Source of the DNA: Candidatus Phoenicimicrobium oleiphilum
GTDB taxonomy: Bacteria; Atribacterota; Phoenicimicrobiia; Phoenicimicrobiales; Phoenicimicrobiaceae
Assembly: GCA_039638295.1 (NCBI GenBank)
Contig: JBDIWJ010000003.1
Span: 16,289-80,288 of the forward strand
DNA length: 64,000 nt
Direction of reading: 5' to 3'
A program made the position numbers and the translations under genes. The notes under the pieces were generated by a model. That model ran no database searches and was not told where the DNA came from. It saw only the letters and a list, made by a program, of their open reading frames with translations. Positions 3,138 through 61,748 of this stretch are shown one piece after another (position 1 is the stretch's first letter; each line of letters starts with the position of its first letter).

Positions 3138-3330
3138 ATTCGCATCTCGTGAATCGTATCTCTTATTTAGTTATCTGGTTAGTTGGTTACCTAGTTAGCT
3201 GGTTGAGGAATGATTATATTAAAGAATTAATATTAAACTAATTAACCAACAAACCAGTTAACTAGCTAACTAAACACTAGCGAGATACGAAATACGAACG
3301 ACTATTTATGAGAGCGGGGTGGAGCAATCA

Positions 3331-3750
3331 ATGCAAACCATTAAAACTGAACTTGGAGAAATAAATATTTCTAAAGAAACTATTGGATATATCGTTCGTT
3401 TAATTTTAGTTGATATTAAAGGTGTGGCAGGCAGTAAAAAAACGGTTATGAATGAAATAACCGATATGTTAATGGGAAACACTGATATAATTAGTGATAC
3501 TTCAAGTAATATAAAAATAGAAATAAAGGATAACAAAATTTTCATTGATTTATTTATTATAATAAAATATGGAGTAAGGATACCAGACATAGCCTGGGAT
3601 ATACAAAACAGGATCAAAGAAGAATTAATAAGAAAAATTGGTACAGATACTAGCGAGATAAATATACATATTCAAGGGATACAGTTTCCTAAAAAAGCAC
3701 AGAGTAAAAAAGAATTAGTTGCATCTGATCTATTCATACAGGTTTTCTAA
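3331..3750 (+). CDS. Asp23/Gls24 family alkaline-shock protein (YqhY-like)
   Basis: Asp23-like sequence (IGYIVRLILVDIKGVAGS). The ATG at 3331 has GGAG 6 nt upstream; the ORF track instead offers an alternative GTG at 3319. The position upstream of nusB matches Firmicutes synteny. Confidence 0.8.
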   Translation: MQTIKTELGEINISKETIGYIVRLILVDIKGVAGSKKTVMNEITDMLMGNTDIISDTSSNIKIEIKDNKIFIDLFIIIKYGVRIPDIAWDIQNRIKEELIRKIGTDTSEINIHIQGIQFPKKAQSKKELVASDLFIQVF

Positions 3751-3799
3751 AAAAACAGATTGACTCATCCTCCCTGAAGGGAGAGGGTTGGGAGGAACA

Positions 3800-4219
3800 A
3801 TGGGAGTAAGAAGATTATCTCGTGAATTGGCATTACAGGTATTATTTCAAATCGATTTAGTCAATGCCAATATGGAAGAAAGTTTAAGATATATATTTGA
3901 AAATGGTACATATTCTGAAGATATAAAAGAGTTTACTTTAAATATAGTCAGAGGAGTAATGGGTAATTTAATAGAAATAGATAAAGCAATCAAAAAATAC
4001 ACTGATAATTGGTCTCTGGAAAGAATTAATAATATAGATCGGAATATTTTACGTATAGCAATTTACGAGATATTATTTAGAGATGATATTCCCAAGAGTG
4101 TTTCTATCAATGAAGCAGTTGAGTTAGCCAAAAAATATGGTACAGAAAGTTCATTTAGTTTTGTAAATGGTGTTTTAGGTAAAATAGATAAGAAAACAAT
4201 AAAGAGCAAAGAAGAATAA
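3800..4219 (+). CDS. nusB: transcription antitermination factor NusB
   Basis: LSRELALQVLFQIDL... is a NusB hallmark. The ATG at 3800 is preceded by GGGAGGAA. The ORF-track TTG at 3788 would overlap the RBS. Confidence 0.9.
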   Translation: MGVRRLSRELALQVLFQIDLVNANMEESLRYIFENGTYSEDIKEFTLNIVRGVMGNLIEIDKAIKKYTDNWSLERINNIDRNILRIAIYEILFRDDIPKSVSINEAVELAKKYGTESSFSFVNGVLGKIDKKTIKSKEE

Positions 4220-4224
4220 ATATT

Positions 4225-5454
4225 ATGGATAATCAAAATGAAGTAAAAATATATACAGTTTCAAAAATAAATAGATATATAAAAGCCCTCTTTGAAGGTG
4301 ATTACAATCTACAGAATGTATGGATATTGGGAGAGATTTCTAATTTTAAATTACATTCTTCTGGACATATGTATTTTGTGCTTAAAGATCAGGAAAGTCA
4401 AATTAAATGTGTTATGTTTAGAGGAAATAATTTTAATTTAAGATTTATGCCTCAGGATGGTATGAAAGTAAAAGTAATGGGAGATATTCGTGTTTACGAG
4501 AGGAGAGGGGAATATCAATTATATGCGAAAATAATTGTTGAATCAGGGAAAGGCGAACTTTACTTAGCTTTTGAAAGATTAAAAGAAAAGCTTAAGGCAG
4601 AAGGTCTTTTTGCTGAGGAATATAAGAAGAAATTACCCCTCATTCCTCAAAACATTGCGGTAATAACTTCCCCTACCGGAGCGGCAATTAGAGATATTAT
4701 TACTATATCGTTAAGAAGATTCCCCAATCTTTCTATATTGGTTGTACCTTCTTTAGTTCAAGGAACATTTGCTGCCCAGGAAATTGCCCAAAAAATAGAT
4801 TTTTTAAATAAACATTTTAGTGATTTAGATTTTATTATAATTGGCCGAGGTGGTGGTTCTTTAGAAGAATTATGGGCATTTAATGAAGAAATATTAGCTC
4901 GTAGTATATATAATTCTAAGATACCAATTGTTTCCGCAGTTGGTCACGAGACAGATTTTACCATTTCAGATTTTGTTGCTGATTTACGCTCTCCAACCCC
5001 TTCCGCGGCAGCTGAAATGACTATTCCTGATAAGAATAATTTAATAAATAATATAAATTTATTAAATAGCAAATTAACTAGAGCGATGAAAAGAAATATT
5101 GAATTAAAAATAGAGAACTTAAATTCTTTGAGCAAGAGTATTCAATATTATAGTCCAGAGAATAGGGTTAACCAATATTATCAATATATTGATGAATTTA
5201 TTGGTCGAATAAATTCAAGGATAAATCATAAGTTTCAATTATGGGAAGAAAGAATTAAAAAAGACTCGCAAAGATTAGATTCTTTAAATCCCTGGGCAGT
5301 TATTGAACGAGGATATAGTATATGTAGGAAACTACCCCATTTGGAAATTATTAAAAAATTAGAGCAAGTTGAAATCGGTAACAAAATCGAAGTTATCATA
5401 AGTGATGGAAAAATATCTGGGGAAGTAAACAAAAAGGAGGCTTTGAAGAATTGA
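4225..5454 (+). CDS. xseA: exodeoxyribonuclease VII large subunit
   Basis: 409 aa with an OB-fold N-terminus and a catalytic domain. Its stop overlaps the xseB start. Confidence 0.92.
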   Translation: MDNQNEVKIYTVSKINRYIKALFEGDYNLQNVWILGEISNFKLHSSGHMYFVLKDQESQIKCVMFRGNNFNLRFMPQDGMKVKVMGDIRVYERRGEYQLYAKIIVESGKGELYLAFERLKEKLKAEGLFAEEYKKKLPLIPQNIAVITSPTGAAIRDIITISLRRFPNLSILVVPSLVQGTFAAQEIAQKIDFLNKHFSDLDFIIIGRGGGSLEELWAFNEEILARSIYNSKIPIVSAVGHETDFTISDFVADLRSPTPSAAAEMTIPDKNNLINNINLLNSKLTRAMKRNIELKIENLNSLSKSIQYYSPENRVNQYYQYIDEFIGRINSRINHKFQLWEERIKKDSQRLDSLNPWAVIERGYSICRKLPHLEIIKKLEQVEIGNKIEVIISDGKISGEVNKKEALKN

Positions 5455-5720: not shown

Positions 5721-6570
5721 TAAGTATTTAAGTGATAAAAAAAGTATTATTGATAAGGCATTAGATGACTTTTTACCATCAGAAGAGTCCCCACCCTCAA
5801 TTATTCATAAAGCTATGCGATATAGTGTTTTTAATGGGGGTAAAAGACTTAGACCAATTTTGACCCTCGCTACCGCTGAATTATTGGGTAAAGAGATAGA
5901 AATAGTATTAAATTTGGCTTGTGGAATTGAACTAATTCATACTTTTTCTTTAATTCATGATGATTTACCTTGTATAGATAATGATGATTTCAGACGAGGG
6001 AAACCCAGCAACCATAAAGTATTTGGAGAGGCTGTTGCCCTATTAGCCGGGGATGCCCTTTTAGTTTCTGGATTTGAATTTATAGTAAAAAATGCTGAAA
6101 TTAAGAATATAAGGAAACAATCTATTTTAAAAGTACTTAAAGAAATATCTTATTATATTGGAACTAAAAATATGTTAGGCGGACAAGTAGAAGATATAAG
6201 TATGGAAAATGAAAATATCAATAGAGATTATCTATACAAAATGTATTCGAAAAAAACTGCGGCTCTAATCTGTGCTTCAATTAGAGGAGGGGCAATTTTA
6301 TCTGGAGCTAATCAAAGACAACTAAAAGCTTTAACCAGATATGGAGAAAATATTGGTTTAGCCTTTCAAGTTACGGATGATATAATTGATATGATGCAAG
6401 ACCAAAGGGAAATGAAAAAACCAACTTATCCTCAAAAATATGGGATTAAAGAAGCAAAGATAGAAGTTGAAAGATTGATTAAAGAAGCAAAAAAATCTTT
6501 AAAAATATTCAATGAAAAAGCAGAAATATTAAATGCTTTAGCTGATTATATACTAGCAAGAGAAAAATAG
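5710..6570 (+). CDS. ispA: (2E,6E)-farnesyl diphosphate synthase
   Basis: Polyprenyl synthase with an FSLIHDDLP (DDxxD) first motif and a VTDDIID second motif. The start is most likely ATG 5710 (MNFDKYL). The ORF-track start at 5653 overlaps xseB. Confidence 0.88.
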   Translation: MNFDKYLSDKKSIIDKALDDFLPSEESPPSIIHKAMRYSVFNGGKRLRPILTLATAELLGKEIEIVLNLACGIELIHTFSLIHDDLPCIDNDDFRRGKPSNHKVFGEAVALLAGDALLVSGFEFIVKNAEIKNIRKQSILKVLKEISYYIGTKNMLGGQVEDISMENENINRDYLYKMYSKKTAALICASIRGGAILSGANQRQLKALTRYGENIGLAFQVTDDIIDMMQDQREMKKPTYPQKYGIKEAKIEVERLIKEAKKSLKIFNEKAEILNALADYILAREK

Positions 6571-6630
6571 TGGTTAGTGAATATTCAATAACTAATGACT
6601 ATTCACTATCGACTAAATTAAGGAGGAAAG

Positions 6631-7359: not shown

Positions 7360-7952
7360 AAATATTAGTCGCATCTAAAAATTTAGATAAAGTTAAAGAA
7401 ATCAAAGAGATGTTAAAAAATACTAATTTAAAAATATTAACTATAAAAGATTTTCCTGAGCTTCCACAAATTGAGGAAGATGGAAAAACATTTATGGAAA
7501 ATGCCTTAAAAAAGGCTTGTAAAATTTCGCAGTATACCGGTAAAATTTGTTTAGCTGATGACTCAGGCTTAGAAATAGATTATTTAAAGGGAAAACCAGG
7601 TATTTACTCCTCAAGATGGGGGAATTGTGATGCAGAACGTATCAGTAAAGTTTTAGAATTACTAAAAGATGTGCCAGAAAATAAAAGAGGTGCTAAATTT
7701 ATATGTGTCTTAGTACTTGCCTTTCCAGATGGGAGAAGATATATAGTAAATGGAGAGTGCAAGGGAAGAATTTCTGTTAATCCCAGAGGAGAATATGGTT
7801 TTGGTTATGACCCTATTTTTTTAGTTCCCGAATATAATAAAACATTTGCTGAATTAGGTGAAGAAATAAAAAATCGCATAAGTCATAGAGGAAAAGCTTT
7901 TAAAAAAATGATTAAAATAATAAATAAATTAGTCGTTAGTAATAGTCGATAG
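7353..7952 (+). CDS. rdgB: dITP/XTP pyrophosphatase (Ham1/RdgB family)
   Basis: 199 aa starting [10 protein letters not shown]... with FGYDPIF. It overlaps the rph stop. Confidence 0.9.
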
Positions 7953-8277
7953 TCGATAGTATGACCGGTGCCTTAATTGGTTTAATATACCTTTATAATA
8001 TAATGATATTATACCAGACAATTTTTTCCTGCTTAAAAATGAAAAAATATGAAATATTTGTTAAAAAATTTTATTCGAATATCGTTTTTTGTATATCTCA
8101 TATAGTAAAAATAGTAATACCGTTAGCCAGTTTGCCAGTTACCCGGTCAAAGAATTAAAATCAACTTTCTTAACTGGATAACCGGTAAACAGGGTAACTG
8201 GGTAACTAATACGCGATACGATTTACTAACGACTATTCACTATCGACTAGTTAAGAGTTTTGAATTATGGTTTTTCG
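7927..8277 (+). repeat. ~350-bp dispersed repeat, copy A, with heptamer-tiled terminal inverted repeats (MITE-like)
   Basis: About 95% identical to the reverse complement of 52254-52608. Its ends are tagtcgttagtaatagtcgatagtcgatagt and actaacgactattcactatcgactagtt. An internal ccagttaccc...gggtaactgg hairpin is present. Confidence 0.85.
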
Positions 8278-8392
8278 CTTATTCGTTTTTACGGGCACAA
8301 GTTTCGCTTTAAGTTTTTAGCTGTATATCGATAACAGAAAGTCGACAATAAAAAATTTGGTTACTCTTAACAAAAAATTGTAAAGGAAGCGA

Positions 8393-9097: not shown

Positions 9098-9135
9098 ATA
9101 CAGCCGTAAAAATATTTGCGGCTGTATTTCAATTA
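9098..9135 (+). terminator. intrinsic terminator of the tRNA operon
   Basis: Hairpin atacagccg-N12-cggctgtat followed by tttcaatt. Confidence 0.6.
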
Positions 9136-9168: not shown

Positions 9169-10485
9169 ATGGTAGATGTTAAAATAAAAAAGAAAGAAGA
9201 TAATGAAGTAAATCTCGAAATAGAGGTTGATAAATCTGAAGTAAGTAACCAATTAGAAAAAGTATATAATGATTTATCTTATAAAGTAAAAATTCCTGGA
9301 TTTCGAAAGGGTAAAATTCCAAGAAATATTTTAAATTTGCATTTGGGAAAAGAATATTTTTATCAAAAAACTGCCGAAATACTCATACCAGGTAGTTATA
9401 ATGATGCAATAAAAAAAGTAAATATTGAACCGATTGAGCAACCAAGAATTAATATAATCCAGATAGAAGAAGGTAAACCATTGATTTATGAAGCGAGTGT
9501 TCAGGTAAAGCCAGAAGTTAAAATCGGTTCTTTAAAAGAAATAAAAATAAAAAAAGAAAATTTAAAAATAACCAGCGAAGATGTGGAAAATGAAATTAAA
9601 AGAATTCAAGAAAGTCATGCTATTTTAAAAGTAGTTAAAAATCGAGAAGCAAAGGATGGAGACTTTCTAATAATTGATGCTGAAGCTTATATTGAAGGAA
9701 AATTAATAGAAAAAAGCAAGGTCGAAAAACAGATTATTCAATTAGGAAAGAGTGCCATTCCTGAATTTAATGAAAAACTTTTGGGTTGTAAACCGGGAGA
9801 AGAGAAAGAGATAAATATCAATGTTCCTAAAGACGCAAAAGATAAAGAATTAGCAGGCAAAGAAATTATTTATAAAATTAAAGTGTTGGAAATAAAAGAG
9901 AGAGAATTACCTGAATTGAATGATGATTTTGCTAAAACAGTAGGTAAATTTAGCGATTTGAACGATCTCAAGAATTCTATCAATAAGGAGTTAAATAAGC
10001 AAATTGATAGAATTAATAAAAATAATTTTGAGCAAAAATTATTGGATAAAGTAGCTGAAATTTGCGAAGTAAAGGTGCCTGATGTTTTAGTTGAAAGAGA
10101 AGTAAATTATATGATGAAATCTTTAGAGAATGATTTAAAATCCCAAAAGATATCTTCACAAGATTATTATAAGAATATTAATTCTGATGAGGAAACAGTT
10201 AGAAAAGAGTATAAAGTCGTTGCTGAAAGAAGAATAAAGCAAGAATTAATTCTGGATAAAATTGCTCGAGAAAATGGAATTGAGGTTTCTGAAAAAGAGA
10301 TAAAAGATAAAATTAACGATATTGCTAAAGAGATTAAGCAAGACCCATTAAAAGTGGAAGCCAATTTTAAAAAGAATAATAATATAGATTCATTAAGAGA
10401 AAATATAAGGAGAGAAAAAGTAATTGATTATATTGCTAAACAAATTACCATAATTGATTCTGAAAAGGAGGAAAAAACAAAATGA
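9169..10485 (+). CDS. tig: trigger factor
   Basis: 438 aa with N-terminal ribosome-binding motif GFRKGKIPR. Sits upstream of clpP-clpX. Confidence 0.92.
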
Positions 10486-11078
10486 CTTTAGTACCTATAG
10501 TAGTAGAACAAACTCCACGAGGAGAGAGATCATATGATATATACTCTCGTTTATTAAAAGATAGAATAATATTTTTAGGAACGGAAATTGATGATGCAAC
10601 AGCAAATACTATAATAGCTCAGTTGCTATTTTTAGAGGCAAGCGATCCTGATAAGGATATTTATGTTTATATAAATAGCCCTGGAGGATCAGTTAGCTCT
10701 ACCATTGCTATATATGATACTATTCAATATATTAGATCCAATGTTTCAACAATATGTGTTGGTATGGCTGCCAGTGGTGCAGCTTTAATATTAGCATGTG
10801 GCACAAAAGGGAAAAGATTTGCTTTACCTAATTCAAGAATTATGGTACATCAACCTTTAGGGGGAGCGCAAGGTCAAGTAACTGATATCGAGATACAAAC
10901 TAAAGAATTAAAAAGAATTAAAAATACTATTAATCAAATATTGACTTATCATACTGGACAACCTTTTGAAAAAATAGAAAGAGATACCGATAGAGATTTT
11001 TATTTAACTGCTCAAGAAGCAAAAGAGTACGGAATAGTTGATGATGTAATAAAAAGTCGAGATGAAGCAATTAAATAG
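10482..11078 (+). CDS. clpP: ATP-dependent Clp protease proteolytic subunit
   Basis: 198 aa. The catalytic Ser context GMAASGAA and the His context MVHQPLGG are present. Confidence 0.95.
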
Positions 11079-11202
11079 TATTGAGTATATAGTATTACGT
11101 ATCGAATATCGCGTATCGTGCATTGTACTAATACACTTACTCTATAAGCTATATGCTCTACGCTATAATGTATACGAGATAAGAGAAGGGAGTTGAAAAT
11201 CG

Positions 11203-12474
11203 ATGAAATGTTCATTTTGTGGTAAAAATCAAAATGAAGTACATACAATAATTGCAGGACCAGGAGTTTACATCTGTGATGAATGCATCGAGGTATGTAA
11301 TGATATTATATTAGATAAAAGAATAAAAAAAGATGTAACTTTTAATTTAAAAGAAATACCATCTCCACAAGAAATTAAAAATTATTTAGATAAATATGTC
11401 ATAGGACAAGAGAAAACAAAAAAAATACTTTCGGTAGCTGTATACAATCATTACAGGAGAATTATGAGTAATGATAGTAATAAACAAAATAAAAGGAATA
11501 AAAAAGCTAAAAAACAAAAAGAAGAAATAGAATTAGAAAAAAGTAATATTTTGCTAATAGGGCCTACCGGATGTGGAAAAACTTTATTGGCTCGAACTTT
11601 AGCCAAAAAATTAAATGTACCATTTGTTATTGCCGATGCTACTACCTTAACTGAGGCGGGATATGTAGGTGATGATGTAGAAAATATTTTGTTAAATTTA
11701 CTTAGAGTGGCCGATAATGATATTTTAAAAGCACAGAGAGGTATTATATATATCGATGAGATAGATAAAATCGCTCGAAAATCTGAGAATCCTTCTATAA
11801 CGAGAGATGTTTCAGGAGAAGGTGTTCAGCAGGCACTATTGAAAATTATAGAAGGTACAATTTCGAGTGTTCCGCCTTATGGAGGTCGGAAACATCCACA
11901 AGAAAAGAATATTCAAATAGATACTACCGAAATACTATTTATTTGTGGAGGAACATTTGAAGGATTAGAAAATATAATAAATAATAGGATAGGCAAAAAT
12001 AATATAGGTTTTAAAGCAAATATAAAAAGCAAAAATAATAAGGAGCAAATCTATAAAATAATAGAAAATGTATTACCAGAAGATTTGGTAAAATATGGAT
12101 TGATTCCTGAATTAGTGGGGAGATTGCATATTGTTTCTACTTTGGAAAATTTAGATAGAGATGCTTTGATAAAAATATTAACTGAACCGAGAAATGCAAT
12201 AATAAAACAATATAAAAAAATGTTTAAATTAGAAGGGGTAGAACTAAATTTTACCCCAGATGCTTTAGAAGCAATTGTAGAAGAAAGTATAAAAAGAAAT
12301 ACTGGGGCAAGAGGTTTGCGTTCGATTATGGAAGATTCAATTTTGGATATAATGTATCAAATACCATCAAATAAAAATATTAAGAAATGTACTATTACTA
12401 AAGAAGTTATTAAGAAGAAAGTGATGCCAGAAATAGAAAGATATGAAGAAAGCTTAAAAAAAGAAACTGCATAA
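11203..12474 (+). CDS. clpX: ATP-dependent Clp protease ATP-binding subunit ClpX
   Basis: C4 zinc finger (CSFCGK...CDEC), Walker A (GPTGCGKT) and the GYVG pore loop. Confidence 0.95.
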
Positions 12475-12530
12475 TAGCGTATAGTGTACAGCGTTGTACG
12501 CCATACAAAAAAGGGAGATTTACATTTTAT

Positions 12531-14888
12531 ATGAATAATAAAAATGCAAAAAGTTTAAACAAAAATGTATTACCAGTATTGCCATTAAGAGACTTAGTGG
12601 TTTTTCCTTATATGATTGTTCCCTTGTTTATAGGAAGAGAACAATCTATTAATTCATTAGAAGAAGCAGTAAACTTAAACAGTCTAATTTTTTTAGTATC
12701 TCAAAAAGACCCTGAAGTAGAGAAACCTGATTTCGAAGACCTTTATTCCGTAGGTACAATTGCCAAAATAATACAAATATATAAATTACCTGATGATACT
12801 ATCAAAGTATTGGTAGAAGGAATAAGTAGAGCAAAAATTGTTGATATAGAAGAAAATGAAAATTTACTTAGGGTAAAAATAGAAAAAATTAAGACGAAAA
12901 CTATAAAAAATTTAGAAACCAAAGCTTTAATGAGGTTAACGGTAAAAGAATTTGAGCAGTATTTAAAATTAAATGATAAACTACCCCCTGAAATAATGTT
13001 TTCGATAACAAATATTGAGAAGCCAGATAAATTAGCCGATTTAATTGCTTCAAATCTAATTTTAAAGGTAAAAGAGAAACAAGAATTATTAGAAATATCT
13101 AATCCTTCCCAGAGGTTAGAAAGATTAATTACCATATTAAAAAAAGAAATAATTATTTTAAAATTAGAACAAAAGATTCAAAATAGAGTAGAAGGGACAT
13201 TAGAAAAAATTCAAAGAGAATATTATCTAAAGGAACAGTTAAAAGAGATTCAAAAAGAATTGGGTAATAATGGAAGAGACATTTTCGAAGTTAAAGGTGA
13301 GGCTGAAGAATTCAAAGAGAAGATAAAATCTTTAAAATTAAACAAAGAACTGGAGGAAAGATTATTAAAGGAAACTTCACGTTTAGAAAAAATACCAATT
13401 TTGTCTGCAGAAAGTGGAGTAATAATAAATTATTTAGAATGGATTTTATCCCTTCCCTGGAATAAGAAGACGAAAGAAAAATTAGATATAAAATTAGTTG
13501 AAAAGATATTGGATGAAGATCACTATGGTTTAACAGATGTCAAAGAAAGAATTTTGGAATACTTAGCGGTAAGAAAGTTAAGGAAAAATAATAAGAAGGG
13601 GGTCATACTTTGTTTGGTAGGACCACCCGGAGTAGGCAAGACCTCTTTAGCAAAATCTATTGCGCGAGCAATGGGAAGAAACTTTGTAATGGTTTCTTTA
13701 GGAGGTGTTCGGGACGAGGCAGAAATACGGGGGCACAGAAAAACTTATATAGGTTCTATGCCAGGAAGAATTATAAAAGGAATAGTTAATGCAAAATCTA
13801 AGAATCCAGTTTTTTTATTAGATGAAATTGATAAAATGGGTATGGATTTTAGAGGTGATCCTGCTTCTGCACTTTTAGAAGTATTAGACCCTGAACAGAA
13901 TAGTAATTTTGTTGACCATTATCTCGAAATACCTTTTGATTTATCAGAAGTAATGTTCATTACTACTGCTAATGTAGATGATGAAATACCCTATTCACTC
14001 AGGGATAGAATGGAGATAATTAATATTCCTGGGTACACAGATTATGAAAAAGTAAAAATTAGTCAATTCTTTTTAATTCCTAAACAATTAAAGAACCATG
14101 GCTTTAAAAAAGAAGATATAGAGATATCGGAAAAAGCTATTAAAAAAGTAATTAGAGAATATACTCGTGAGGCAGGAGTACGTGGATTAGAAAAAGAGAT
14201 CGCCTCTATATGCAGAAAAGTGGCTCTAAAAATTACTTACTCTAAAAAGAAAAAAAGAGTGAAGATTACTTTAAATAATTTGGAGAATTATTTGGGTATA
14301 CCCAGATATAAATATAATAATGTTGAAAAAGAAGATATGATTGGATTAGCAACAGGTTTAGCCTGGACCGAGGCAGGAGGAGAGATATTATCAGTTGAAA
14401 CAATAGTAATGCCCGGGAAAGGCAAATTAACTCTTACTGGTCAATTAGGGGAAGTAATGCAAGAATCGGGAAAGGCTGCACTAACTTATGCCCGTTCTCG
14501 TGCCAAAAAATTTAAGATAAAAAATAAATTTTACGAAAACTATGATATTCATGTTCATATACCAGAAGGTGCCATACCTAAGGATGGACCATCAGCTGGA
14601 GTAACAATGGCTACTTCTTTAATTTCATCACTTACTGAAATTCCAGTTCGAAAAGATGTGGCAATGACTGGAGAAATCACTTTAAGAGGAAGAGTTCTGC
14701 CAGTTGGAGGTTTAAAGGAAAAGATACTTGCTGCCTATCAGTCTGGTATCAAAACGATAATAATTCCTAAAGAAAATATTAAAAATATAGATGATTTACC
14801 TAATAACATTAAAAAAAGATTAAAATTTGTTGCGGTAAATAATATCGATGATGTCTTAAAAACTGCGCTTACCAGATGTCCTTTTTAA
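12531..14888 (+). CDS. lon: Lon protease
   Basis: 785 aa with a LON N-domain, an AAA+ domain (GPPGVGKTS) and a Ser-Lys dyad (PKDGPSAG). Confidence 0.95.
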
Positions 14889-15059
14889 AAATACCATAAC
14901 AGTATCGAGTATCAAGTATATAGTATCCAGTAAAGAGAAAAAAAGAAAGAGAGAATGACTGAAAAATAAAATATATTTATCGGACGACGATAAAACTAAT
15001 AAAAAAATTATAATTTAAATTTATGATTATAACCCAAAAAGTGAAAAATATTTAAATTT

Positions 15060-15088
15060 TTGACAGATAAAATAATTTATAGTAATAT
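15060..15088 (+). promoter_or_regulatory. sigma-70 promoter for the valS leader
   Basis: TTGACA (15060-15065), a 17-nt spacer, then TAATAT (15083-15088). Confidence 0.6.
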
Positions 15089-15096: not shown

Positions 15097-15341
15097 ATTA
15101 AGAAATATGCTATAAGGGGAAGAGTAGAAGGACATAAATATTTATTGCCTTTTATCGAAAGTCCTCCCCCAGCTGTTAATCTGAAAAATAAAAGTAGGAT
15201 TAACCGGTAGTTACGTTATAACTTAAAAATAGAGAGCCTGTTAATTTTATTTTTACAAAAAATATTTAATACAGGAATTAAGGTGGTACCACGGAAAGAC
15301 TCCTTTCGCCCTTTTAAGAAGCGAAGGGAGTCTTCTGTTTT
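15097..15341 (+). promoter_or_regulatory. T-box riboswitch leader of valS
   Basis: Canonical T-box sequence aattaaGGTGGTACCaCGG at 15277-15294. It is followed immediately by a terminator hairpin (gactcctttcgc/gcgaagggagtc) and ttctgtttt. Stem I has an AGAGTAG (AG-box-like) motif. Confidence 0.8.
15298..15341 (+). terminator. T-box attenuator terminator
   Basis: 12-bp stem with a U-tract. It overlaps the antiterminator and T-box. Confidence 0.75.
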
Positions 15342-15362: not shown

Positions 15363-18035
15363 ATGAAAAAAATAAATAATAGTGACATCCAGTCAGTATA
15401 CAATCCCAGGGCAGTTGAAGAAAAATGGTATAAATTCTGGCTGGAAAAAAATTATTTTAAAGCGAAAATCCAATTTGATAAAGAAAAAAATTATTCTATA
15501 GTTATACCTCCCCCTAATGTTACTGGTTCATTACATATTGGACATGCTTTAAACAATACTCTACAAGACATTTTAGTTAGATGGAAAAGAATGGAAGGTT
15601 ACAACACTCTTTGGTTACCAGGAACTGACCATGCAGGAATTGCTACCCAAAATGTAGTGGAAAGAGAAATAGCCAAAGAGGGGAAAAACAGATATGATTT
15701 GGGAAGAGAAAAATTCCTGGAAAGGGTGTGGCAGTGGAAGGAAAAATACGGGAATAACATTATAAATCAATTGAAAAGATTGGGATTTTCTTGTGATTGG
15801 TCACGATTAAGATTTACTTTAGATGAAGGGCTTTCCAGGGCTGTTAGAAGGGTATTTGTACAGTTATATAAAGAGGGACTGATATATCGGGAAAATTATG
15901 TAATAAATTGGTGTCCCAGATGCCAGACTGCTTTAGCAGATATTGAAGTAGTTTCGGTAGAAGAAAATGCTAATCTCTATTATATAAACTATCCCATTAA
16001 AGATTCTGAAGAGGTAATTTCAGTGGCTACTGTTCGCCCTGAAACAATGCTTGGTGATACGGCAGTAGCGGTTCATCCTGATGACAAAAGATACAAAAAA
16101 TATATTGGTAAAACTGCTATATTACCTTTAGTGGGGAGAGAACTACCAATAATCGCTGATAGTTATGTTGACCCTGAATTTGGTACAGGGGCAGTAAAGA
16201 TAACTCCTGCTCATGATTTAAATGATTTTGAATTAGGCAAACGTCATAGTCTTCAAATGATCAATTTATTAAAAAATGATGGAACTATGAACGAGCAAGC
16301 AGGGAAATATAAAGGCTTGAGTGTAACAGAATGTCGAGAAAAAGTGGTAAAAGAATTGAAAGAAAAAGGATACTTAATAAAAATTGAAGATTATCAACAT
16401 TCAATAGGGCATTGTTATAGATGCGGTACCATTATCGAACCATATCTTTCTAAACAATGGTTTGTGAAGATGAAGGAACTTGCACTACCAGCAATTTCAG
16501 CGGTCGAGGAAGGTAAAATTGAATTTATACCTTCTCGCTGGGATAAGGTATATTATGAGTGGATGAAAAATATTAAAGATTGGTGTATTTCGCGCCAATT
16601 ATGGTGGGGGCACCGTATTCCAGTATGGTATTGCCAGGATTGTTTAGAATTAAATGTCGAAGAAGATGCTCCTTCATTTTGTAAAAAATGTGGCAGCTAT
16701 AATTTAGTACAAGATCCTGATGTTTTAGATACCTGGTTTAGTTCAGCTTTATGGCCTTTTTCTACTTTAGGATGGCCAGAAGTAACTGATGACTTGAAAT
16801 GTTTTTATCCAACTTCAGTTTTAGTTACCGGTTTTGATATAATATTCTTTTGGGTAGCTCGAATGATAATGATGGGGCTGAAATTTTGTGGAGACGTACC
16901 CTTTAAAAAAGTTTATATAAATCCCTTGATTAGAGATGCAGAAGGCAAAAAAATGAGTAAATCAAAGGGGAATGTTATAGATCCCTTAACGATTGTCGAA
17001 GAATATGGATCTGATGCTTTAAGAATTACACTTGCCTCACTAACTATTCAAGGAAATTATATCTGTTTATCTGAAGAAAGAATTAAAGGGTTCAGGAATT
17101 TTACTAATAAAATATGGAATGTATCAAGATTTTCAATGATGAACCTTAAGGATTTTAATATTGATAAAATAGAAAAGGATAAATTGAAAATGTCCTTAGC
17201 TGATAAATGGATAATCAGTCGGTTAAACAGGGCAATAAAGAAGACTAGTGATTATCTTAATGAGTTTAAGTTTGGAGAAGCTGCAAAAACTATTTATGAA
17301 TTTAGTTGGAATGAATTTTGTGATTGGTATATAGAATTTATTAAACCAAGATTATATCAAGAAGAAGATGAGATTGGAAAACAGACAGCTCAATATATCT
17401 TGTGGATAACTTTGGAAAATACTTTAAAACTTTTACATCCTTTTATGCCTTTTATAACTGAAGAAATTTGGCAAAAAATTCCTCACAAAGGGAAAAGTAT
17501 TATGATTTCATATTGGCCCAAATATAATATGGAATGTGTAGATAAAGATACAGAAGAAAAGATGAGTAAAATTATGGATATAATTAGAACGATTAGAAAA
17601 ATCAAATCAGATATGAATATTCCATATAGCAAAAAGATAAATTTGTATCTTAATATTGCCCAGGATAAAAATTTGTTAGAACTAATAAAGGAAAATATCT
17701 ATTATATAGAATCATTAATCAAAATAGAATCATTAAATATTGGAACAAATATTACAAAACCGCCTTACTCAGCAACTGGTGTTTTGGAAGGTGTAGAAAT
17801 ATTTATTCCTTTGAAAGATATAATTAATATTCCAGAAGAGATAAGCCGTTTAGAGAAAAGATTACTTAAGGTAAAAAATGAGTTAGATATTGTATGCAGA
17901 AAATTAACTAATCAAGATTTTTTAGCCAAAGCTCCTGATGAGGTAATTAAGAAGAAGAAAGAGAAAGCAGATGAATTGCAGGATATCAAAGAAAGATTGG
18001 AAAATCACTTAAAAACCTTAAATAGTGGCAAATAG
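15363..18035 (+). CDS. valS: valine--tRNA ligase
   Basis: 890 aa with HIGH (PNVTGSLHIGH) and KMSKS motifs and a C-terminal coiled coil. Confidence 0.96.
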   Translation: MKKINNSDIQSVYNPRAVEEKWYKFWLEKNYFKAKIQFDKEKNYSIVIPPPNVTGSLHIGHALNNTLQDILVRWKRMEGYNTLWLPGTDHAGIATQNVVEREIAKEGKNRYDLGREKFLERVWQWKEKYGNNIINQLKRLGFSCDWSRLRFTLDEGLSRAVRRVFVQLYKEGLIYRENYVINWCPRCQTALADIEVVSVEENANLYYINYPIKDSEEVISVATVRPETMLGDTAVAVHPDDKRYKKYIGKTAILPLVGRELPIIADSYVDPEFGTGAVKITPAHDLNDFELGKRHSLQMINLLKNDGTMNEQAGKYKGLSVTECREKVVKELKEKGYLIKIEDYQHSIGHCYRCGTIIEPYLSKQWFVKMKELALPAISAVEEGKIEFIPSRWDKVYYEWMKNIKDWCISRQLWWGHRIPVWYCQDCLELNVEEDAPSFCKKCGSYNLVQDPDVLDTWFSSALWPFSTLGWPEVTDDLKCFYPTSVLVTGFDIIFFWVARMIMMGLKFCGDVPFKKVYINPLIRDAEGKKMSKSKGNVIDPLTIVEEYGSDALRITLASLTIQGNYICLSEERIKGFRNFTNKIWNVSRFSMMNLKDFNIDKIEKDKLKMSLADKWIISRLNRAIKKTSDYLNEFKFGEAAKTIYEFSWNEFCDWYIEFIKPRLYQEEDEIGKQTAQYILWITLENTLKLLHPFMPFITEEIWQKIPHKGKSIMISYWPKYNMECVDKDTEEKMSKIMDIIRTIRKIKSDMNIPYSKKINLYLNIAQDKNLLELIKENIYYIESLIKIESLNIGTNITKPPYSATGVLEGVEIFIPLKDIINIPEEISRLEKRLLKVKNELDIVCRKLTNQDFLAKAPDEVIKKKKEKADELQDIKERLENHLKTLNSGK

Positions 18036-18120
18036 TCGTTAGTGAATAGTGAATAGTAAGGAAGGTAATTGAAAAGTAGAGGTGTGGTGCTTATACTAAC
18101 GACTATTCACTATTAACTAA
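18033..18120. repeat. heptamer-tiled inverted-repeat element
   Basis: The arm tagtcgttagtgaatagtgaatagta faces the arm tactaacgactattcactattaacta. The element overlaps the valS stop. Confidence 0.8.
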
Positions 18121-18142
18121 CAACTGATTTGTAGAGGTGAGT

Positions 18143-23599: not shown

Positions 23600-23658
23600 T
23601 ATTTCGTATATCGTATATATTATATCGTGAAGAAAAATAGGAGTCAGAATCCAGAAAT

Positions 23659-44299: not shown

Positions 44300-44533
44300 G
44301 GTAGGGGGCAATATGCATAATCTTTTGAAGATATTTTTGGCTTTTTGTGGAATAACCATAGTATATAAATTAGCTACTAGTGAATAGAAAATAGTATAAG
44401 AACGAAGTAAACTAACTGCTAACGACTTTTCACTAACGACTAATTGTTGAAGGGTCTAATTGTTTATGCTAAAATAATTTAGCTTATTAATAATAAAAAT
44501 TTAAATCATCAAAAAACAAAAGGAGATATTAAT

Positions 44534-47061: not shown

Positions 47062-47529
47062 GTGAATTTAAAGTTGGCAATTAATAGGATAGAAATAAAG
47101 TTAGAAAAAGCAAAAGGTTGCGAAGACCTGCCTTTACCTGTTTCTGCAAGTGAATTTTCGTCAGGAGTTGATTTATTATGTGCAGAAACTTCGGAGATTA
47201 TATTAAAACCTGGCCAAATAAAATTAGTTTCTACAGGCATTAAAATTATGATACCTGAAGGATATGAAGGTCAAATAAGGCCACGTAGTGGTCTTGCTCT
47301 TAAATATGGTGTTACTGTTTTAAATACTCCAGGAACTATCGATTCTGATTATAGAGGAATTGTAAAGGTAATATTAATTAATTTAGGTGAAAAGGATTTT
47401 ATTATACAAAGAGGAGACAGAATCGCTCAATTGATAGTTCAAAAAGTATTTTATCCTGATTTTAAATTAGTTAAAACTTTAAATAATACAAAAAGAGGAG
47501 AAGGTGGATTTGGACATAGTGGCATATAA
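47062..47529 (+). CDS. dut: dUTP diphosphatase
   Basis: 155 aa with dUTPase motifs (SAGVDL, RSGLALK, GTIDSDYRG). GTG start. Confidence 0.88.
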   Translation: MNLKLAINRIEIKLEKAKGCEDLPLPVSASEFSSGVDLLCAETSEIILKPGQIKLVSTGIKIMIPEGYEGQIRPRSGLALKYGVTVLNTPGTIDSDYRGIVKVILINLGEKDFIIQRGDRIAQLIVQKVFYPDFKLVKTLNNTKRGEGGFGHSGI

Positions 47530-47631
47530 TAAGTAATAAGTAATGAGTAATGAGTAATAAGATTAAATTTTCTAATTACTGAAAACTACTACTTACCGCG
47601 AATTACTCATTACTCATTACTTATTTACTTT
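47530..47631. repeat. heptamer-tiled inverted-repeat element
   Basis: The arm (gtaataa gtaatga gtaatga gtaataa) faces its reverse complement across a 38-nt spacer. It begins immediately after the dut stop. Confidence 0.85.
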
Positions 47632-47650
47632 ATCTAAGTGGAGGTATTTA

Positions 47651-52253: not shown

Positions 52254-52608
52254 AAGCGAAAAACCATAATTCAAAACTCTTAACTAGTCGATAGTGAATA
52301 GTCGTTAGTAAATCGTATCGCGTATTAGTTACCCAGTTACCCTATTTACCGGTTATCCAGTTAAGAAAGTTGATTTTAATTCTTTGACTGGGTAACTGGC
52401 AAACTGGCTAACGGTATTACCATTTTTACTATATGCGATATACAAAAAACGATATTCGAATAAAATTTTTTAACAAATATTTCATATTTTTTCATTTTTA
52501 AGCAGGAAAAAAATTGTCTGGTATAGTATTATTATATTATAAGGGTATATTAAACCAATTGAGGTATCTGTCATACTAACGACTATCGACTATTCACTAA
52601 CGACTAAT
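52254..52608 (-). repeat. ~350-bp dispersed repeat, copy B (inverted relative to copy A)
   Basis: The reverse complement aligns end to end with 7927-8277, with about 15 mismatches or indels. Confidence 0.85.
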
Positions 52609-52700
52609 AAAAGGAGGTGATAAATGAATTATTTCTGAAGTGAAATTTAAACGATGTTAATATTTTCATTATTTTCTAATAAAGAAAGGAGATTTTAGTA

Positions 52701-53744: not shown

Positions 53745-53861
53745 CTACTAAACCCTGGTAAATTTCTCTATTAATTTAGAGAGGCATCCATTATTGTAAA
53801 ATGTATGCCTCTCTATATAAAAAATCTTAGATGCAATTATTAGTTAAGGAGGAATTATTAA

Positions 53862-59018: not shown

Positions 59019-59181
59019 TTTTCCAAAAGGTAAATAATGATTTGTATATCAGGTAGCGTTTAGCATATAGAGAATACAGTAATTAGTAATGTGTAATAAG
59101 TAATAAGTAGAGATAAAGTATAGTAAAATAGCGAAAAACGAAAAACCATAATTTAAAATTCAAAACTTTTTGTACTTTTCT

Positions 59182-59264
59182 GTCATTGCGAGCGACCACA
59201 GGGAGCGTGGCAATCTCTTTATGATATTGAGATTGCTTCGTCGCTGAAGCTCCTCGCAATGACA
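59182..59264. repeat. inverted pair of 35-nt cattgcgag units
   Basis: gtcattgcgagcgaccacagggagcgtggcaatctc at 59182-59217. Its inverted partner (reverse complement gtcattgcgaggagcttcagcgacgaagcaatctc) is at 59229-59264. The two are separated by tttatgatatt. Confidence 0.85.
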
Positions 59265-59341
59265 AGAATGTATTATTTTTTTAAAGAAATTCTTATACAT
59301 TTAAATTAGAAATAAAACAATAGGGAGTTAATTATAAAAAT

Positions 59342-59911: not shown

Positions 59912-59936
59912 TAAATATCTTTAAAGGAGCAGAGAA

Positions 59937-60980
59937 ATGACTGAAAAGGATCAACAAAATAATCCAGAAAAAGAAAAAGCATTAAAAATAGCTATGCAAA
60001 ATATCGAACAAAGATTTGGAAAAGGTTCGATAATGAAACTGGGAGACAAGCCCATAATCTTAGATAGTAACTGTATATCTACAGGTTCATTAGGATTAGA
60101 TATTGCTCTTGGGATAGGAGGTGTACCTCGGGGGAGAGTAATAGAAATATTTGGACCTGAATCATCAGGGAAAACAACACTTGCTTTACACATTATAGCT
60201 GAAGCCCAAAAAAACAATGGAATTGCTGCGTTTATTGATGCTGAACATGCTTTAGATCCAAACTATGCCAAGAGTATCGGCGTAAATATTGATGAATTAA
60301 TTATATCCCAACCCGATACTGGTGAACAAGCGTTAGAGATTGCTGAATCCCTGGTAAGAAGTAACGCTGTCGATGTTATAGTAATAGATTCAGTTGCAGC
60401 TCTTGTACCCAAAGCAGAAATTGAAGGCGATATGGGAGATTCATATATGGGATTACAAGCAAGGTTAATGTCTCAAGCCCTTAGAAAGTTAACTGCTATT
60501 ATAAGTAAATCAAGAACCACTACTATATTTGTAAACCAGATTAGAGAAAAAATTGGTATTTTTTTTGGTAATCCTGAGACAACTCCTGGAGGCAGAGCAC
60601 TTAAATTTTATTCAACAATCAGAATGGATATTAGAAGAAAAGCATCCATTAAAAAAGATGAAAATGATATTGGAATAAATGTGAAAGTAAAGGTAGTAAA
60701 AAACAAGTTAGCTCCACCTTTTAAAGAAGCTAACTTTGATATTATTTTTGGTACAGGGATATCAAAAGAAGGGGATATTATAGATCTTGGTTTAAAATAC
60801 GGTATATTACAAAAATCAGGAGTATGGATATCTTATAATGATATAAAATTTGGTCAAGGTCGGGAAAATTGTAAAAAATATTTACAAGAACACTCAGAAG
60901 TTGCAAAAGAAATAGAAAATAAAATACTTTCTATCGTTGGCCTCAATAAAAAAACAAACAAAGAGGTTGCTAAAAAATAA
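59937..60980 (+). CDS. recA: recombinase RecA
   Basis: 347 aa with Walker [10 protein letters not shown] and L1/L2 loops. Confidence 0.97.
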
Positions 60981-61069
60981 AGAAAATAACTTCTATTGAA
61001 TATAATAAAAAAGTTCCTTCTCAAAGAGTAGTCTATATAGATAATAAATCAAAATATAATATTGATGAA

Positions 61070-61612
61070 GTGACTATCGACTTGTTAGATCTTTATATTG
61101 GTAAAGAATTAACCGATAAAGAGATCAGTAAAATTATTTTGGAAGATGAAACAGAAAAAGGAAAAAAATATGTTTTAAGACTACTAAACCGTAGATGTTA
61201 TAGTAAATATGAAATCATCAACAAATTAAAAATAAAAGGTTTTTCTAAAAATGTTATTCCTGTTATTATTTCTTGGTTAGAAAAGAAAGAATATATTGAT
61301 GATGAATTGTTTGCTACTATGTGGGCTCAGTCCAGGATGAAAAATAAACCTATAGGAAGATATAGATTAAATCAGGAATTAAAAATAAAAGGAATTGACC
61401 AAGAGATTATTAATAAAATATTAGATAAAATTTATAATGATGTAGACGAGTTAACTTTAGCGCGAAATCTTATTAATAAAAAAATTACTTCATCAAAGCT
61501 AAAAAATATATCTGTAAATCCTGATAGAATATATAATTTTTTATTAAGAAGAGGGTTCTCAAGAGAAATATCTAAAAAAATCTACGATGAACTAAACAAT
61601 GAAAATGTATAG
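61070..61612 (+). CDS. recX: recombination regulator RecX
   Basis: 180 aa triple-helical repeat protein downstream of recA. GTG start. Confidence 0.8.
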   Translation: MTIDLLDLYIGKELTDKEISKIILEDETEKGKKYVLRLLNRRCYSKYEIINKLKIKGFSKNVIPVIISWLEKKEYIDDELFATMWAQSRMKNKPIGRYRLNQELKIKGIDQEIINKILDKIYNDVDELTLARNLINKKITSSKLKNISVNPDRIYNFLLRRGFSREISKKIYDELNNENV

Positions 61613-61748
61613 TGTAAAGTGTAATAAGTAACGTGTAATAAATAACTGTTTTTATAATTTTAAGTTTAATCTCATAACTTATTACCTATTACTTGTTACT
61701 GTATTTTATACGAGACACGATTCACGAAATACGAATTTAGTTATTTGA
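61611..61748. repeat. heptamer-tiled inverted-repeat element
   Basis: The arm gtgtaaagtgtaataagtaacgtgtaataaataac faces cttattacctattacttgttac. This is followed by cgagaca cgattca cgaaata cgaattt heptamers. Confidence 0.8.

Follow-up and report, generated by a model that had tools for sequence, protein, structure and literature searches.

About half of the spacers between genes in a 64,000-nt stretch of DNA from Candidatus Phoenicimicrobium oleiphilum (Atribacterota; contig JBDIWJ010000003.1, positions 16,289 to 80,288; referred to here as the window) were found to carry arrays of tandem 7-nt units, or heptads, which share one consensus, take fixed positions relative to the flanking genes and persist at the same sites in related genomes. 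These arrays may represent slippage-driven heptanucleotide repeats of the short tandemly repeated repetitive (STRR) type, confined to one Atribacterota clade, with a palindromic organization resembling that of repetitive extragenic palindromic (REP) sequences and bacterial interspersed mosaic elements (BIMEs), and forming intercistronic mRNA stem-loops, an explanation to which we give about an even chance of being correct. The window has a G+C content of ~30% and almost all of its genes are on the plus strand; among them are the series glyA-efp-asp23-nusB-xseAB-ispA-rph-ham1, a cluster of tRNA genes and the series tig-clpP-clpX-lon-valS-folC-comEA-comEC.

Heptad periodicity and consensus

Autocorrelation analysis of 7.1 kb of window spacers against 100 dinucleotide-preserving shuffles revealed a lag-7 match fraction of 0.3645, compared with 0.3072 ± 0.0051 in the shuffles (z 11.2), with harmonics at lag 14 (z 6.0) and lag 21 (z 3.2); the coding DNA of the window showed no signal at lag 7 (0.2868). 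Tetramers recurring at least three times at a spacing of 7 nt formed 17 runs, compared with 1-8 runs at other spacings (5-14), and all 17 were located in spacers or at gene ends. A detector requiring at least 15 of 21 matches at a given lag identified 16 arrays at lag 7, every one of them non-coding. Lags 5, 6, 10 and 11 yielded no array, lag 8 yielded four and lag 9 two, the latter both coding. The pattern GTA-N4-GTA-N4-GTA was matched 19 times against 0.25 expected, a count attained by none of the 100 shuffles, while the corresponding patterns with N3 and N5 gave three matches and none, respectively. Tandem Repeats Finder (TRF) independently reported a period of 7 or 14 at most of the sites listed in the original prediction, a note made from this sequence that had described heptamer-tiled palindromic elements between genes.

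A metagenome scan with elongation factor P (EF-P) provided ~50 contigs of relatives with EF-P 80-97% identical, individual contigs being designated here by L numbers. A ClpX identical to that of the window is also encoded on a JGI metagenome contig and in several Logan assemblies, and trigger-factor homologues of 63-65% identity are labelled Atribacteria or Atribacterota by their sources. A single contig scan with ClpX as query recovered only relatives of ~60% identity from other phyla, and these served solely as negative or positive controls. The lag-7 excess of non-coding DNA was +0.057 in the window and +0.052 in 50 related contigs, compared with -0.003 and -0.011 in other taxa, contigs of <40% G+C included. 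Array density was 2.5-4.6 per 10 kb in the Atribacterota set versus 0.2-0.9 elsewhere, and 147 of the 151 arrays in relatives were non-coding. Atribacterota contigs L126, L128 and L142 lack the signal, which is also slight in L094 and L095 (tig-67% relatives).

From the low G+C content of the window, one might suspect that the pattern arises by chance or from the base composition of AT-rich spacers. The signal is, however, missing both from dinucleotide shuffles, a control that the original prediction had called for, and from low-G+C genomes of other taxa; its claim of a genuine periodic family was thus borne out, and the orthologous spacers of related contigs do bear arrays, the absence of which it had named as a point in favour of chance. 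Ordinary intrinsic terminators, grouped with chance as a highly improbable alternative, fare no better. As had been stated, the heptad stems are AT-rich and have no T-run, and none of the terminator-like sites at window positions 1-60000 coincides with a heptad array. Canonical terminators with a G+C stem and T-run occur in other spacers (9103-9133, 32966-33012, 53785-53830 and 63488-63525), indicating that the arrays are not the terminators of this organism. Both the chance and the terminator readings are excluded by these observations.

Alignment of 147 non-coding arrays from the window and related contigs by expectation-maximization, over rotation and strand, yielded the consensus (A/C)-G-T-A-T-(A/T)-(T/G), with G at 83% and T at 76%. 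The heptad holds 3.65 bits of information, compared with 2.03 ± 0.03 when the columns of each array are permuted. What had been described as a variable unit sequence therefore collapses onto a single super-consensus, MGTATWK, of which AGTATAT, CGTATAT, AGTATTT, CGTATAG, AGTATCG and CGTATCT are the commonest units. The median array is 39 nt long (~5-6 units). Position 1 is A or C in near-equal shares (C in ~40% of units), and conservation within arrays was 0.76-0.83 at positions 1-3 versus 0.63-0.67 at positions 6-7. A stop triplet is present in 54% of G/T-strand units versus 26% of A/C-strand units and, as 7 is not a multiple of 3, three stop-bearing units close all three reading frames. A G-tract test for G-quadruplex formation detected no GGG run in the 40 commonest units or in the window arrays read.

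The period is real but, contrary to what had been claimed, not strictly 7, since 8-mer arrays (GGTTAGCT / AACTGGnn) were also observed, nested within heptamer arms at 3166-3274, 8122-8207 and 52327-52419. A heptad sub-family, GTTTTGA / TTTTGAA / CGAAAAA, is located at 8250-8290, 52254-52284 and 59130-59170, and at 16114-16240 and 17830-17870 of L092. In Nostoc PCC 7120, 21 genes are reported to be preceded by three to four contiguous copies of TTTTGAA (bioRxiv 10.1101/2022.06.06.494920), a likeness that may be due to chance in AT-rich DNA.

Arrays had been reported at almost every operon boundary and in nearly every spacer, which proved an overstatement: ~17 of the 36 spacers of at least 25 nt have them. 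Many array sites are short co-directional spacers ending at a ribosome-binding site (RBS) and consequently look like intra-operon gaps rather than operon boundaries. Promoter-like sites were at shuffle level (93-112 found versus 96-108 expected), so that operon boundaries could not be mapped by promoters. Mirroring by an inverted array, said to apply in most cases, was observed at ~9 of the 16 sites listed (3141, 6574, 11079, 12476, 18033, 24453, which is short, 44370, 47530 and 61611). The remaining sites are solitary arrays (14893, 23602, 23722, 33238, 36770 and 59060) or, at 29041, two units only. Missing from that list were 7929-7960 with 8223-8249 and 52285-52311 with 52573-52608. The window arrays are given below, the G/T-type being rich in TAG, TAA and TGA and the A/C-type being G-poor.

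3141-3165, plus strand: G/T-type arm CGCATC TCGTGAA TCGTATC TC, 3 nt 3' of the efp stop; outer 5' arm of a nested hairpin
3166-3205, plus strand: 8-mer array GGTTAGTT / GGTTACCT / AGTTAGCT, inner 5' arm; TRF period 8/16 at 3170-3204
3243-3274, plus strand: complementary 8-mer array, inner 3' arm
3281-3302, plus strand: A/C-type arm CGAGATA CGAAATA CGAACGA, outer 3' arm; ends just 5' of the asp23 RBS
6568-6618, plus strand: compact hairpin; TAGT-type arm with the upstream TAG stop, ACTA-type arm ending 12 nt before the rph start
7929-7960, plus strand: TAGT-type array overlapping the stop of the ham1-like gene; left end of a 355-nt composite
8122-8207, plus strand: complementary 8-mer array pair GTTAGCCA... 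/ TAACTGGG..., found by TRF; within the composite
8208-8290, plus strand: A/C-type heptads (ATACGCG ATACGAT; ACTAACG ACTATTC ACTATCG), then GTTTTGA-type; right end of the composite
11075-11129, plus strand: G/T-type array of AGTAT / CGTAT units, containing the clpP TAG stop
11136-11175, plus strand: A/C-type array CTCTATA AGCTATA TGCTCTA CGCTATA, poorly complementary partner of 11075-11129
12476-12512, plus strand: short hairpin with ~2 units per arm (CGTATAG TGTACAG / TTGTACG CCATACA), between clpX and lon
14897-14933, plus strand: solitary G/T-type array AGTATCG AGTATCA AGTATAT AGTATCC, 8 nt after the lon stop
18028-18060, plus strand: TAGT-type arm containing the valS TAG stop
18092-18122, plus strand: ACTA-type arm; the detected array (18092-18130) ends 6 nt before the listed folC start
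23596-23628, plus strand: solitary G/T-type array GTATTTC GTATATC GTATATA, containing the upstream TAG stop
23729-23764, plus strand: solitary G/T-type array of the GTAAT family; repeat family D13
24455-24491, plus strand: short G/T-type array followed by one or two complementary units, 15 nt before the next start codon
33246-33283, plus strand: irregular solitary A/C-type array of ACTATAC units; fold not significant
36770-36802, plus strand: solitary A/C-type array ACGAGAT ACAATTC ACGAGAT ACGAATT, immediately followed by the region's best promoter-like site (36803-36831); repeat family I8
44374-44446, plus strand: degenerate TAGT-type arm and ACTA-type arm; repeat families D2/D3
47527-47561, plus strand: G/T-type arm TAATAAG x2, TAATGAG x2, TAATAAG, starting at the dUTPase TAA stop; TRF 5.0 copies, 92% matches
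47598-47631, plus strand: complementary A/C-type arm ATTACTC x2, ATTACTT; the detected array (47592-47634) ends 16 nt before the next start
52254-52608, minus strand: inverted second copy of the composite, with AAAAC-, TAGT-, CGTAT-type and 8-mer arrays, then an ACTA-type array at 52573-52608
59054-59116, plus strand: long solitary G/T-type array of ~8 units, GTAAT family; TRF 5.1 copies
59130-59170, plus strand: AAAAC-type heptads CGAAAAA CGAAAAA CCATAAT TTAAAAT TCAAAAC; repeat families D14 and I15
61602-61639, plus strand: G/T-type arm TGTATAG TGTAAAG TGTAATA AGTAACG TGTAAT, containing the recX TAG stop
61676-61705, plus strand: complementary A/C-type arm TTACCTA TTACTTG TTACTGT
61708-61737, plus strand: extra A/C-type array ACGAGAC ACGATTC ACGAAAT ACGAATT; repeat family I18; homologous to 36770-36802 and to the reverse complement of 3137-3166

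Polarity and pairing of facing arrays

Among the 115 arrays with a called gene on both sides, 110 are located in co-directional spacers, and their orientation follows the gene context. Where arrays of opposite type are neighbours, the G/T-type came first 34 times and the A/C-type once (binomial p 2e-9, uncorrected for shared ancestry); in the window alone, 10-11 convergent pairs were read by eye against one weak divergent case (29153-29196). The median distance from the upstream stop codon to the start of G/T-type arrays, which often include that codon, is 2 nt (43 of 59 within 15 nt); that from the end of A/C-type arrays to the next open reading frame (ORF) start is 17 nt, which places this end at the Shine-Dalgarno (SD) sequence (31 of 51 within 30 nt). 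This polarity was also observed for solitary arrays, with 11 of the G/T-type near a stop and none near a start, and seven of the A/C-type near a start and one near a stop (both types together: Fisher p 1.6e-4).

The original prediction that facing arrays would form long AT-rich hairpins was supported in part, as many copies can fold in this manner, with potential stems of 20-30 bp. Folds exceeding those of shuffled sequences were obtained for 3130-3310 (z -6.6), 6565-6622 (-5.95), 18028-18122 (-3.8), 47522-47632 (-9.4) and 12470-12515 (-2.8), and the inner 8-mer hairpin at 3163-3275 gave z -4.3. The arms at 47527-47561 and 47598-47631 align with 28 Watson-Crick pairs and no mismatch. Conversely, no such excess was observed for 11075-11190 (+0.4), 33235-33305 (+0.8), 24450-24500 (-1.6), 44365-44450 (-1.5) and 61600-61705 (-2.0). 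The distance between arms is heterogeneous, ranging from a few nucleotides (6568-6618) to ~260 nt.

Partner arms share unit types, and cognate arms showed a mean duplex energy of -23.4 kcal/mol, compared with -15.8 for arms taken from different spacers. Twenty-four aligned stems comprised 606 Watson-Crick positions, 101 transversion mismatches and, on the sense strand, 27 G.U and 12 A.C positions. The excess of G.U over A.C (p 0.024) gives a modest indication that selection acts on the sense RNA. RNAalifold analysis of eight orthologous spacers identified only two compensatory pairs. At the Rfam gathering threshold, only seven tRNAs were recovered and nothing at the arrays; relaxing the limit to E 0.05 added a T-box at 15103-15316 and two weak matches overlapping tRNAs, again with no array match.

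Persistence, turnover and competing explanations

In the efp-asp23 spacer, arrays extend from the stop codon to the RBS in nearly every relative. The corresponding spacer of L097 is 5 nt long and has no array, showing that the array is not essential at this site, and those of L128 and L142 are also array-free. A central palindrome of ~60 nt is common to eight orthologous efp-asp23 spacers. The arms on either side of it vary in length by whole heptads (left arm 1-9 units, right arm 3 to >15), each changing independently of the other; L092 and L093 differ by one AGCGTAC unit. Individual arms can be followed as well: the 3141-3165 arm is present in the orthologous spacers of L092 and L101, both arms occur in the L092 spacer orthologous to 14897-14933, and the right arm of 6568-6618 is identical at 26 of 26 nt in L096, whose loop has an insertion of ~230 nt. 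Coding DNA of the window and L096 is ~90% identical, and most of their spacers can no longer be aligned. Gene order differs around clpX, as clpP is directly followed by lon in the tig-74% and tig-67% relatives (L092 9648-12987 and L094 4846-7905; compare window 10482-14888), with no clpX called between them and, in L092, a repeat-filled spacer of 394 nt, whereas the window and its 94% relative have clpX at this position.

According to the explanation favoured here, arrays would gain and lose whole units in DNA through replication slippage or unequal recombination, composite pieces would now and then be copied into new spacers, and selection would keep arrays, in a fixed polarity, within the unoccupied stretch from a stop codon to the following RBS. 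Such a filter would let the G/T-type strand, with its many TAG, TAA and TGA triplets, abut a gene end or stop codon, and would place the G-poor A/C-type strand, which is without start or SD-like sequences, just 5' of the SD sequence. With co-directional genes on either side, the arrays most likely form part of polycistronic mRNAs, in which facing arrays could pair into a long imperfect stem, its base joining the upstream stop to the downstream RBS. REP sequences and BIMEs act in mRNA stabilization and translation. A post-transcriptional effect of the same kind would be likely, with the stem acting as a barrier to 3' exonucleases or as an RNase III target; alternatively, it may interfere with, or couple, termination and re-initiation.

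A number of observations weigh against this explanation. Slippage, transcription of the arrays and an effect on RNA are steps that we infer. When arrays are grouped by spacer, 51 of the 92 groups consist of a single array, five of the ten hairpins tested in the window fold no better than shuffles, and arms can be very unequal in length (~4 versus at least 15 units in L133). Permuting the order of units in one arm changed the duplex energy only from -23.4 to -21.6 kcal/mol, and arm mismatches are mostly transversions (101 versus 39 transitions); as unit order hardly matters and transversions prevail, much of the pairing follows simply from the heptad that facing arrays share. Hairpin energetics cannot account for the 34:1 orientation bias, which therefore requires the additional filtering argument, common descent or a sequence-specific reader. 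Within arrays, conservation of the core exceeds that of the other positions by a modest margin, which is not decisive for motif selection either way, and since pooled array counts include orthologous spacers of related contigs, the p-values given above are optimistic. Finally, contigs of the same strain (99.9-100% identical, up to ~21 kb) exhibited no array polymorphism, indicating that slippage is slow and that the arrays are not phase-variable loci.

The main rival, already named as an option in the original prediction and rather unlikely in our estimation, proposes that the arrays are operator-like sites for a dedicated nucleic-acid-binding protein reading a 7-nt register, the hairpin being secondary. 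This protein could be an RNA-binding ring of the HutP or TRAP type or a cold-shock-domain protein, or else a DNA-binding ribbon-helix-helix protein such as the omega repressor of pSM19035. A reader of this kind would directly explain the single consensus across arrays of diverse sequence and the strict convergent orientation and gene-context polarity, solitary arrays included. It would also suit the typical array of 4-6 units (median 39 nt) and the rapid turnover of exact sequence with motif, register and location retained. Tandem operators of 7 and 8 bp are typical of ribbon-helix-helix proteins; omega reads contiguous WATCACW heptads cooperatively and accepts direct and convergent, but not divergent, arrangements. 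The HutP site consists of UAG-N4 repeated three times, and the TAGT family (TAGTCGT TAGTGAA TAGTGAA) reads UAG-N4-UAG-N4-UAG. Extending the HutP-like reading to all arrays was rejected, as it fits this family alone (A at position 1, T at position 7): with A and C near-equal at position 1, the UAG pattern fails in the ~40% of units that have C before GT. Omega and HutP sites, moreover, are single regulatory sites rather than genome-wide, and the heptad consensus is unlike WATCACW. A binding partner has likewise been postulated for the heptamers of Nostoc and Beggiatoaceae; here, no candidate protein was identified, the whole genome not having been searched for one. Further points against a reader are that core conservation within arrays is only modestly raised, that one orthologous site may hold from one to more than 15 copies or, as in L097, be empty, which is unusual for an operator, and that filtering of spurious stop, start and SD-like sequences can also explain the polarity.

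Array variability would also suit a neutral origin, in which the arrays are by-products of a 7-nt slippage bias that have no RNA or DNA function and are tolerated where harmless. They fill the space between stop codon and RBS, are dispensable at individual sites (efp-asp23 of L097, L128 and L142) and vary widely in copy number, and slippage favouring 7 nt has been proposed for bacteria generally (Mrazek 2007, as cited in PMC4679880 and PMC4692102). Pure slippage should nevertheless amplify arbitrary 7-mers, whereas a single consensus underlies the arrays; arms of one spacer are better matched to each other than to those of other spacers, G.U exceeds A.C on the sense strand, and one arm is conserved at 26 of 26 nt compared with ~90% identity in neighbouring coding DNA. 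A purely neutral origin is therefore considered quite improbable.

A mobile-element origin was examined in relation to the 355-nt composite, which is bounded by arrays and present at 7928-8280 and 52254-52608 in opposite orientations with 96% identity; its ~260-nt interior was found only in this genome. The original prediction had offered a family of miniature inverted-repeat transposable elements (MITEs) as one option. In the form considered here, paired arrays would serve as terminal inverted repeats of non-autonomous MITE- or REPIN-like elements, with heptads as subterminal binding repeats for a transposase encoded elsewhere. The inverted duplicate, the fixed convergent orientation expected of terminal inverted repeats, the membership of arrays in dispersed sequence families (D2, D3, D12 and D13) and the presence of small genes between arms in relatives all point in this direction. 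However, the composite is not bordered by a target-site duplication, arm distances are heterogeneous with no discrete element length, and arrays persist in the same spacers across the clade rather than showing presence/absence scatter. The arms also change independently and by whole units, and the gene-context polarity extends to solitary arrays. The sole transposase-like gene seen (Y1_Tnp, in L092) has G+C-rich GTAG hairpins beside it, not heptads. The MITE proposal was thus not supported and is judged distinctly unlikely.

The composite interior contains a promoter-like stretch, directed in copy 2 toward the gene at 52701 and in copy 1 antisense into the ham1-like gene. Following the ACTA-type array of copy 2, positions 52612-52640 hold a strong RBS (AAAGGAGGTG) and a mini-ORF (ATG AAT TAT TTC TGA), ~60 nt upstream of 52701, which may encode a leader peptide.

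One of the small genes located between inverted arms in relatives encodes a 119-aa 23S-rRNA-intervening-sequence (IVS) protein (PF05635, 134 bits; bAvd-like), observed at L091 2421-2780, between clpP and clpX, and at L139/L140 6660-7016, in L139 between efp and asp23. The L139 arms, GTATCGC GTATTGC x2 / GCGATAC GCAATAC x2, have four units each and, as read by eye, are perfectly complementary. In rRNA, intervening sequences form stems that are cleaved by RNase III. The layout of these arms matches such an intervening sequence by analogy, and the gene's position between them would fit the stem-loop picture. As an autonomous partner of the hairpins the gene was rejected: its two distinct copies, both between heptad arms, compare with ~150 arrays in ~450 kb (window and L081-L145), making it a passenger at best. 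A 104-aa GIY-YIG nuclease gene occupies the efp-asp23 spacer at L124 846-1160 (also in L125), flanked by GTCATTCCCGCGAAAGCGGGAATC hairpins, a 21-nt tandem repeat (GGAATGACAGAGAGGATGC x3) and long inverted arms of AAAAC / GTTTT-type heptads; such long arms recur in L102, L113, L116, L127, L132 and L144.

Other repeat families share the spacers with the heptads. One, unrelated to them, consists of G+C-rich GTAG-tagged hairpins such as GTAGGGGCACGATGCATCGTGCCC, together with CGGG(G/T)CGGATAAATCCG(C/A)CCC. In L092 and L093 these flank a 175-aa Y1_Tnp gene (27.8 bits, cut-off 23), which by sequence is the signature of REP elements with a REP-associated tyrosine transposase (RAYT). G+C richness, GTAG tag and RAYT association (in L092) are thus features of this separate family and not of the heptad arrays, and the RAYT-like gene, belonging with the GTAG hairpins, was rejected as a heptad partner. 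More G+C-rich palindromes (GTCATTGCGAGCGA...GCAATGAC and GTAGGACAGGCG...CGCCTGTCCTAC) recur in spacers of the window and relatives; as they often sit inside heptad-hairpin loops, these loops look like insertion hot spots.

Window 2455-2483, 2504-2532, 23758-23786, 29103-29131 and 33157-33185; also 23828-23847 and 33203-33222: GTAG hairpin family (D5)
L092 5100-5160 and 5750-5780: GTAG hairpin family in a relative
Window 23659-23696, 59191-59266, 946-974 and 990-1018; L092 1640-1730, 7254-7350 and 10383-10483: G+C-rich palindromes

Three further features of the window were noted. The sole clear minus-strand gene (23904-24383) encodes ribosomal protein S20 (85 bits, residues 3-84) with a C-terminal extension of ~75 residues built of 36-nt (12-aa) tandem repeats (family D1). 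A T-box leader upstream of valS (15103-15316; 82.7 bits, E 2e-16, below the Rfam gathering score of 93) has a promoter-like site at 15060-15088, and the array at 14897-14933 is located upstream of that site. An 84-nt direct repeat of 83% identity (32971-33054 / 41139-41222), consisting of a terminator-like hairpin followed by AAAAAACAATATATTCTAACAAGATTGTCAGAAAA, follows two different genes on their 3' side and may represent a terminator-plus-regulatory module that they have in common.

Relation to known heptamer and palindrome systems

REP, BIME and REPIN sequences with their RAYT transposases (PMC3733652, PMC3184786) provide one comparison, and the original description of the heptad elements as REP/BIME-like is apt with regard to lifestyle. 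Both are dense, short, imperfect palindromes between co-directional genes, with composition varying at conserved sites and with fixed inverted pairs, and both would probably act as mRNA stem-loops. REPs, however, are G+C-rich, carry a GTAG or CGTC tag and lack internal 7-nt tiling, whereas the heptad arrays are AT-rich and untagged.

The 7-nt tiling itself has precedents. Although the original prediction considered it undescribed, intergenic heptanucleotide repeats are known in Xanthomonas, cyanobacteria and Beggiatoaceae; a description of the present Atribacterota elements was not found in the open-access literature. Heptanucleotides are over-represented among long simple sequence repeats, and it has been suggested that 7 nt corresponds to the DNA stretch held by the polymerase, slippage being favoured at this length (both Mrazek 2007, as cited in PMC4679880 and PMC4692102). 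Cyanobacterial STRR heptanucleotides, including those of Calothrix and Nostoc, are attributed to Mazel 1990 in the same two papers. The Atribacterota arrays resemble these STRRs in their tandem 7-nt units, strong non-coding bias, lineage-restricted abundance and several unit variants per genome, and they also display whole-unit copy-number change. They differ in phylum, lower G+C content, looser MGTATWK variants and nested 8-mer arrays. No report of a polarity from stop codon to RBS was found for STRRs in the literature searched.

As a positive control, the detector was applied to loci of Nostoc and Halotia, whose known arrays it recovered, with convergent pairs in Halotia (L058). In Nostoc favosum (L048), (TAGTCAT/TGGTCAT)x4 ... 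(ATGACTA/ATGACAA) is located ~10 nt downstream of the clpX match, a window-like architecture in which the TAGTCAT unit resembles the TAGTCGT/TAGTCGA family of the window. An unidentified metagenome contig of 58% G+C (L159; EF-P 55% identical) carries convergent (TCTAAAG)n ... (CGACTTT/TGACTTT)n pairs at 3372-3494, 5931-5971 and 10047-10101, indicating that the convergent architecture occurs in at least one more, unrelated lineage. Arrays of GGGGA(C/T)T, TTTTGAA and GAC(C/T)AAT near start codons or promoters in Nostoc have modest effects on expression, with a binding partner postulated.

Xanthomonas genomes contain ~185 heterogeneous (GGGANTN)n arrays each, mostly of four units, with 70-75 convergent pairs (Rehm et al. 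2015, PMC4692102). These are 89-93% intergenic, lie a mean of 28 nt from the 5' ORF and mainly between co-oriented genes, and occupy the same spacers in two species with variation in length and sequence; most are transcribed, and no function was found (PMC4692102). The Atribacterota arrays share the conserved-core heterogeneous heptamers, the convergent pairs near the 5' ORF (34 versus 1; median 2 nt) and the same-spacer retention. The G-rich units of Xanthomonas, like GGGGA(C/T)T of Nostoc, have been explained by G-quadruplex formation (PMC4692102), whereas the Atribacterota units are without G-tracts and cannot form G-quadruplexes, the other class features being shared. In marine Beggiatoaceae, cyanobacteria and some Bacteroidetes, TAACTGA occurs in two to six copies just upstream of start codons in one orientation (MacGregor 2015, PMC4679880), with 169 direct sets and one indirect, and a post-transcriptional role has been proposed (PMC4679880). 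A/C-type Atribacterota arrays likewise end just upstream of the RBS; TAACTGA, however, is one exact unit in direct repeats that replaces the canonical SD sequence, whereas the Atribacterota arrays precede it.

The reason for the abundance of intergenic heptamers in some bacteria is a long-standing question, for which slippage, G-quadruplexes and an unknown binding protein have been proposed (PMC4679880, PMC4692102). The Atribacterota clade represents an AT-rich case in which no G-quadruplex is possible and the other hallmarks are kept, namely ~4-6 units, convergent pairs, a position following a gene, and persistence of sites with turnover of units, which argues against G-quadruplexes as the common cause. 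A more far-reaching possibility, which we regard as quite doubtful, is that an unknown protein reading a 7-nt register signals where one cistron ends (G/T-type) and where the next is about to begin (A/C-type), a genome-wide post-transcriptional punctuation whose principle would also hold in Nostoc, Xanthomonas and Beggiatoaceae in place of G-quadruplexes or plain slippage. The likeness of TAGTCGT here to TAGTCAT in Nostoc would then reflect a shared or exchanged reader. In practical terms, the arrays and the other spacer repeats probably complicate assembly and annotation of metagenome-derived Atribacterota genomes. Judged from their sequences, the Atribacterota arrays are a further case of the known, unexplained class of heptamers to which the Nostoc and Xanthomonas repeats belong, and they provide a sharp rule, with the G/T-type on the stop codon and the A/C-type before the RBS, solitary arrays included, that is testable in those other systems.

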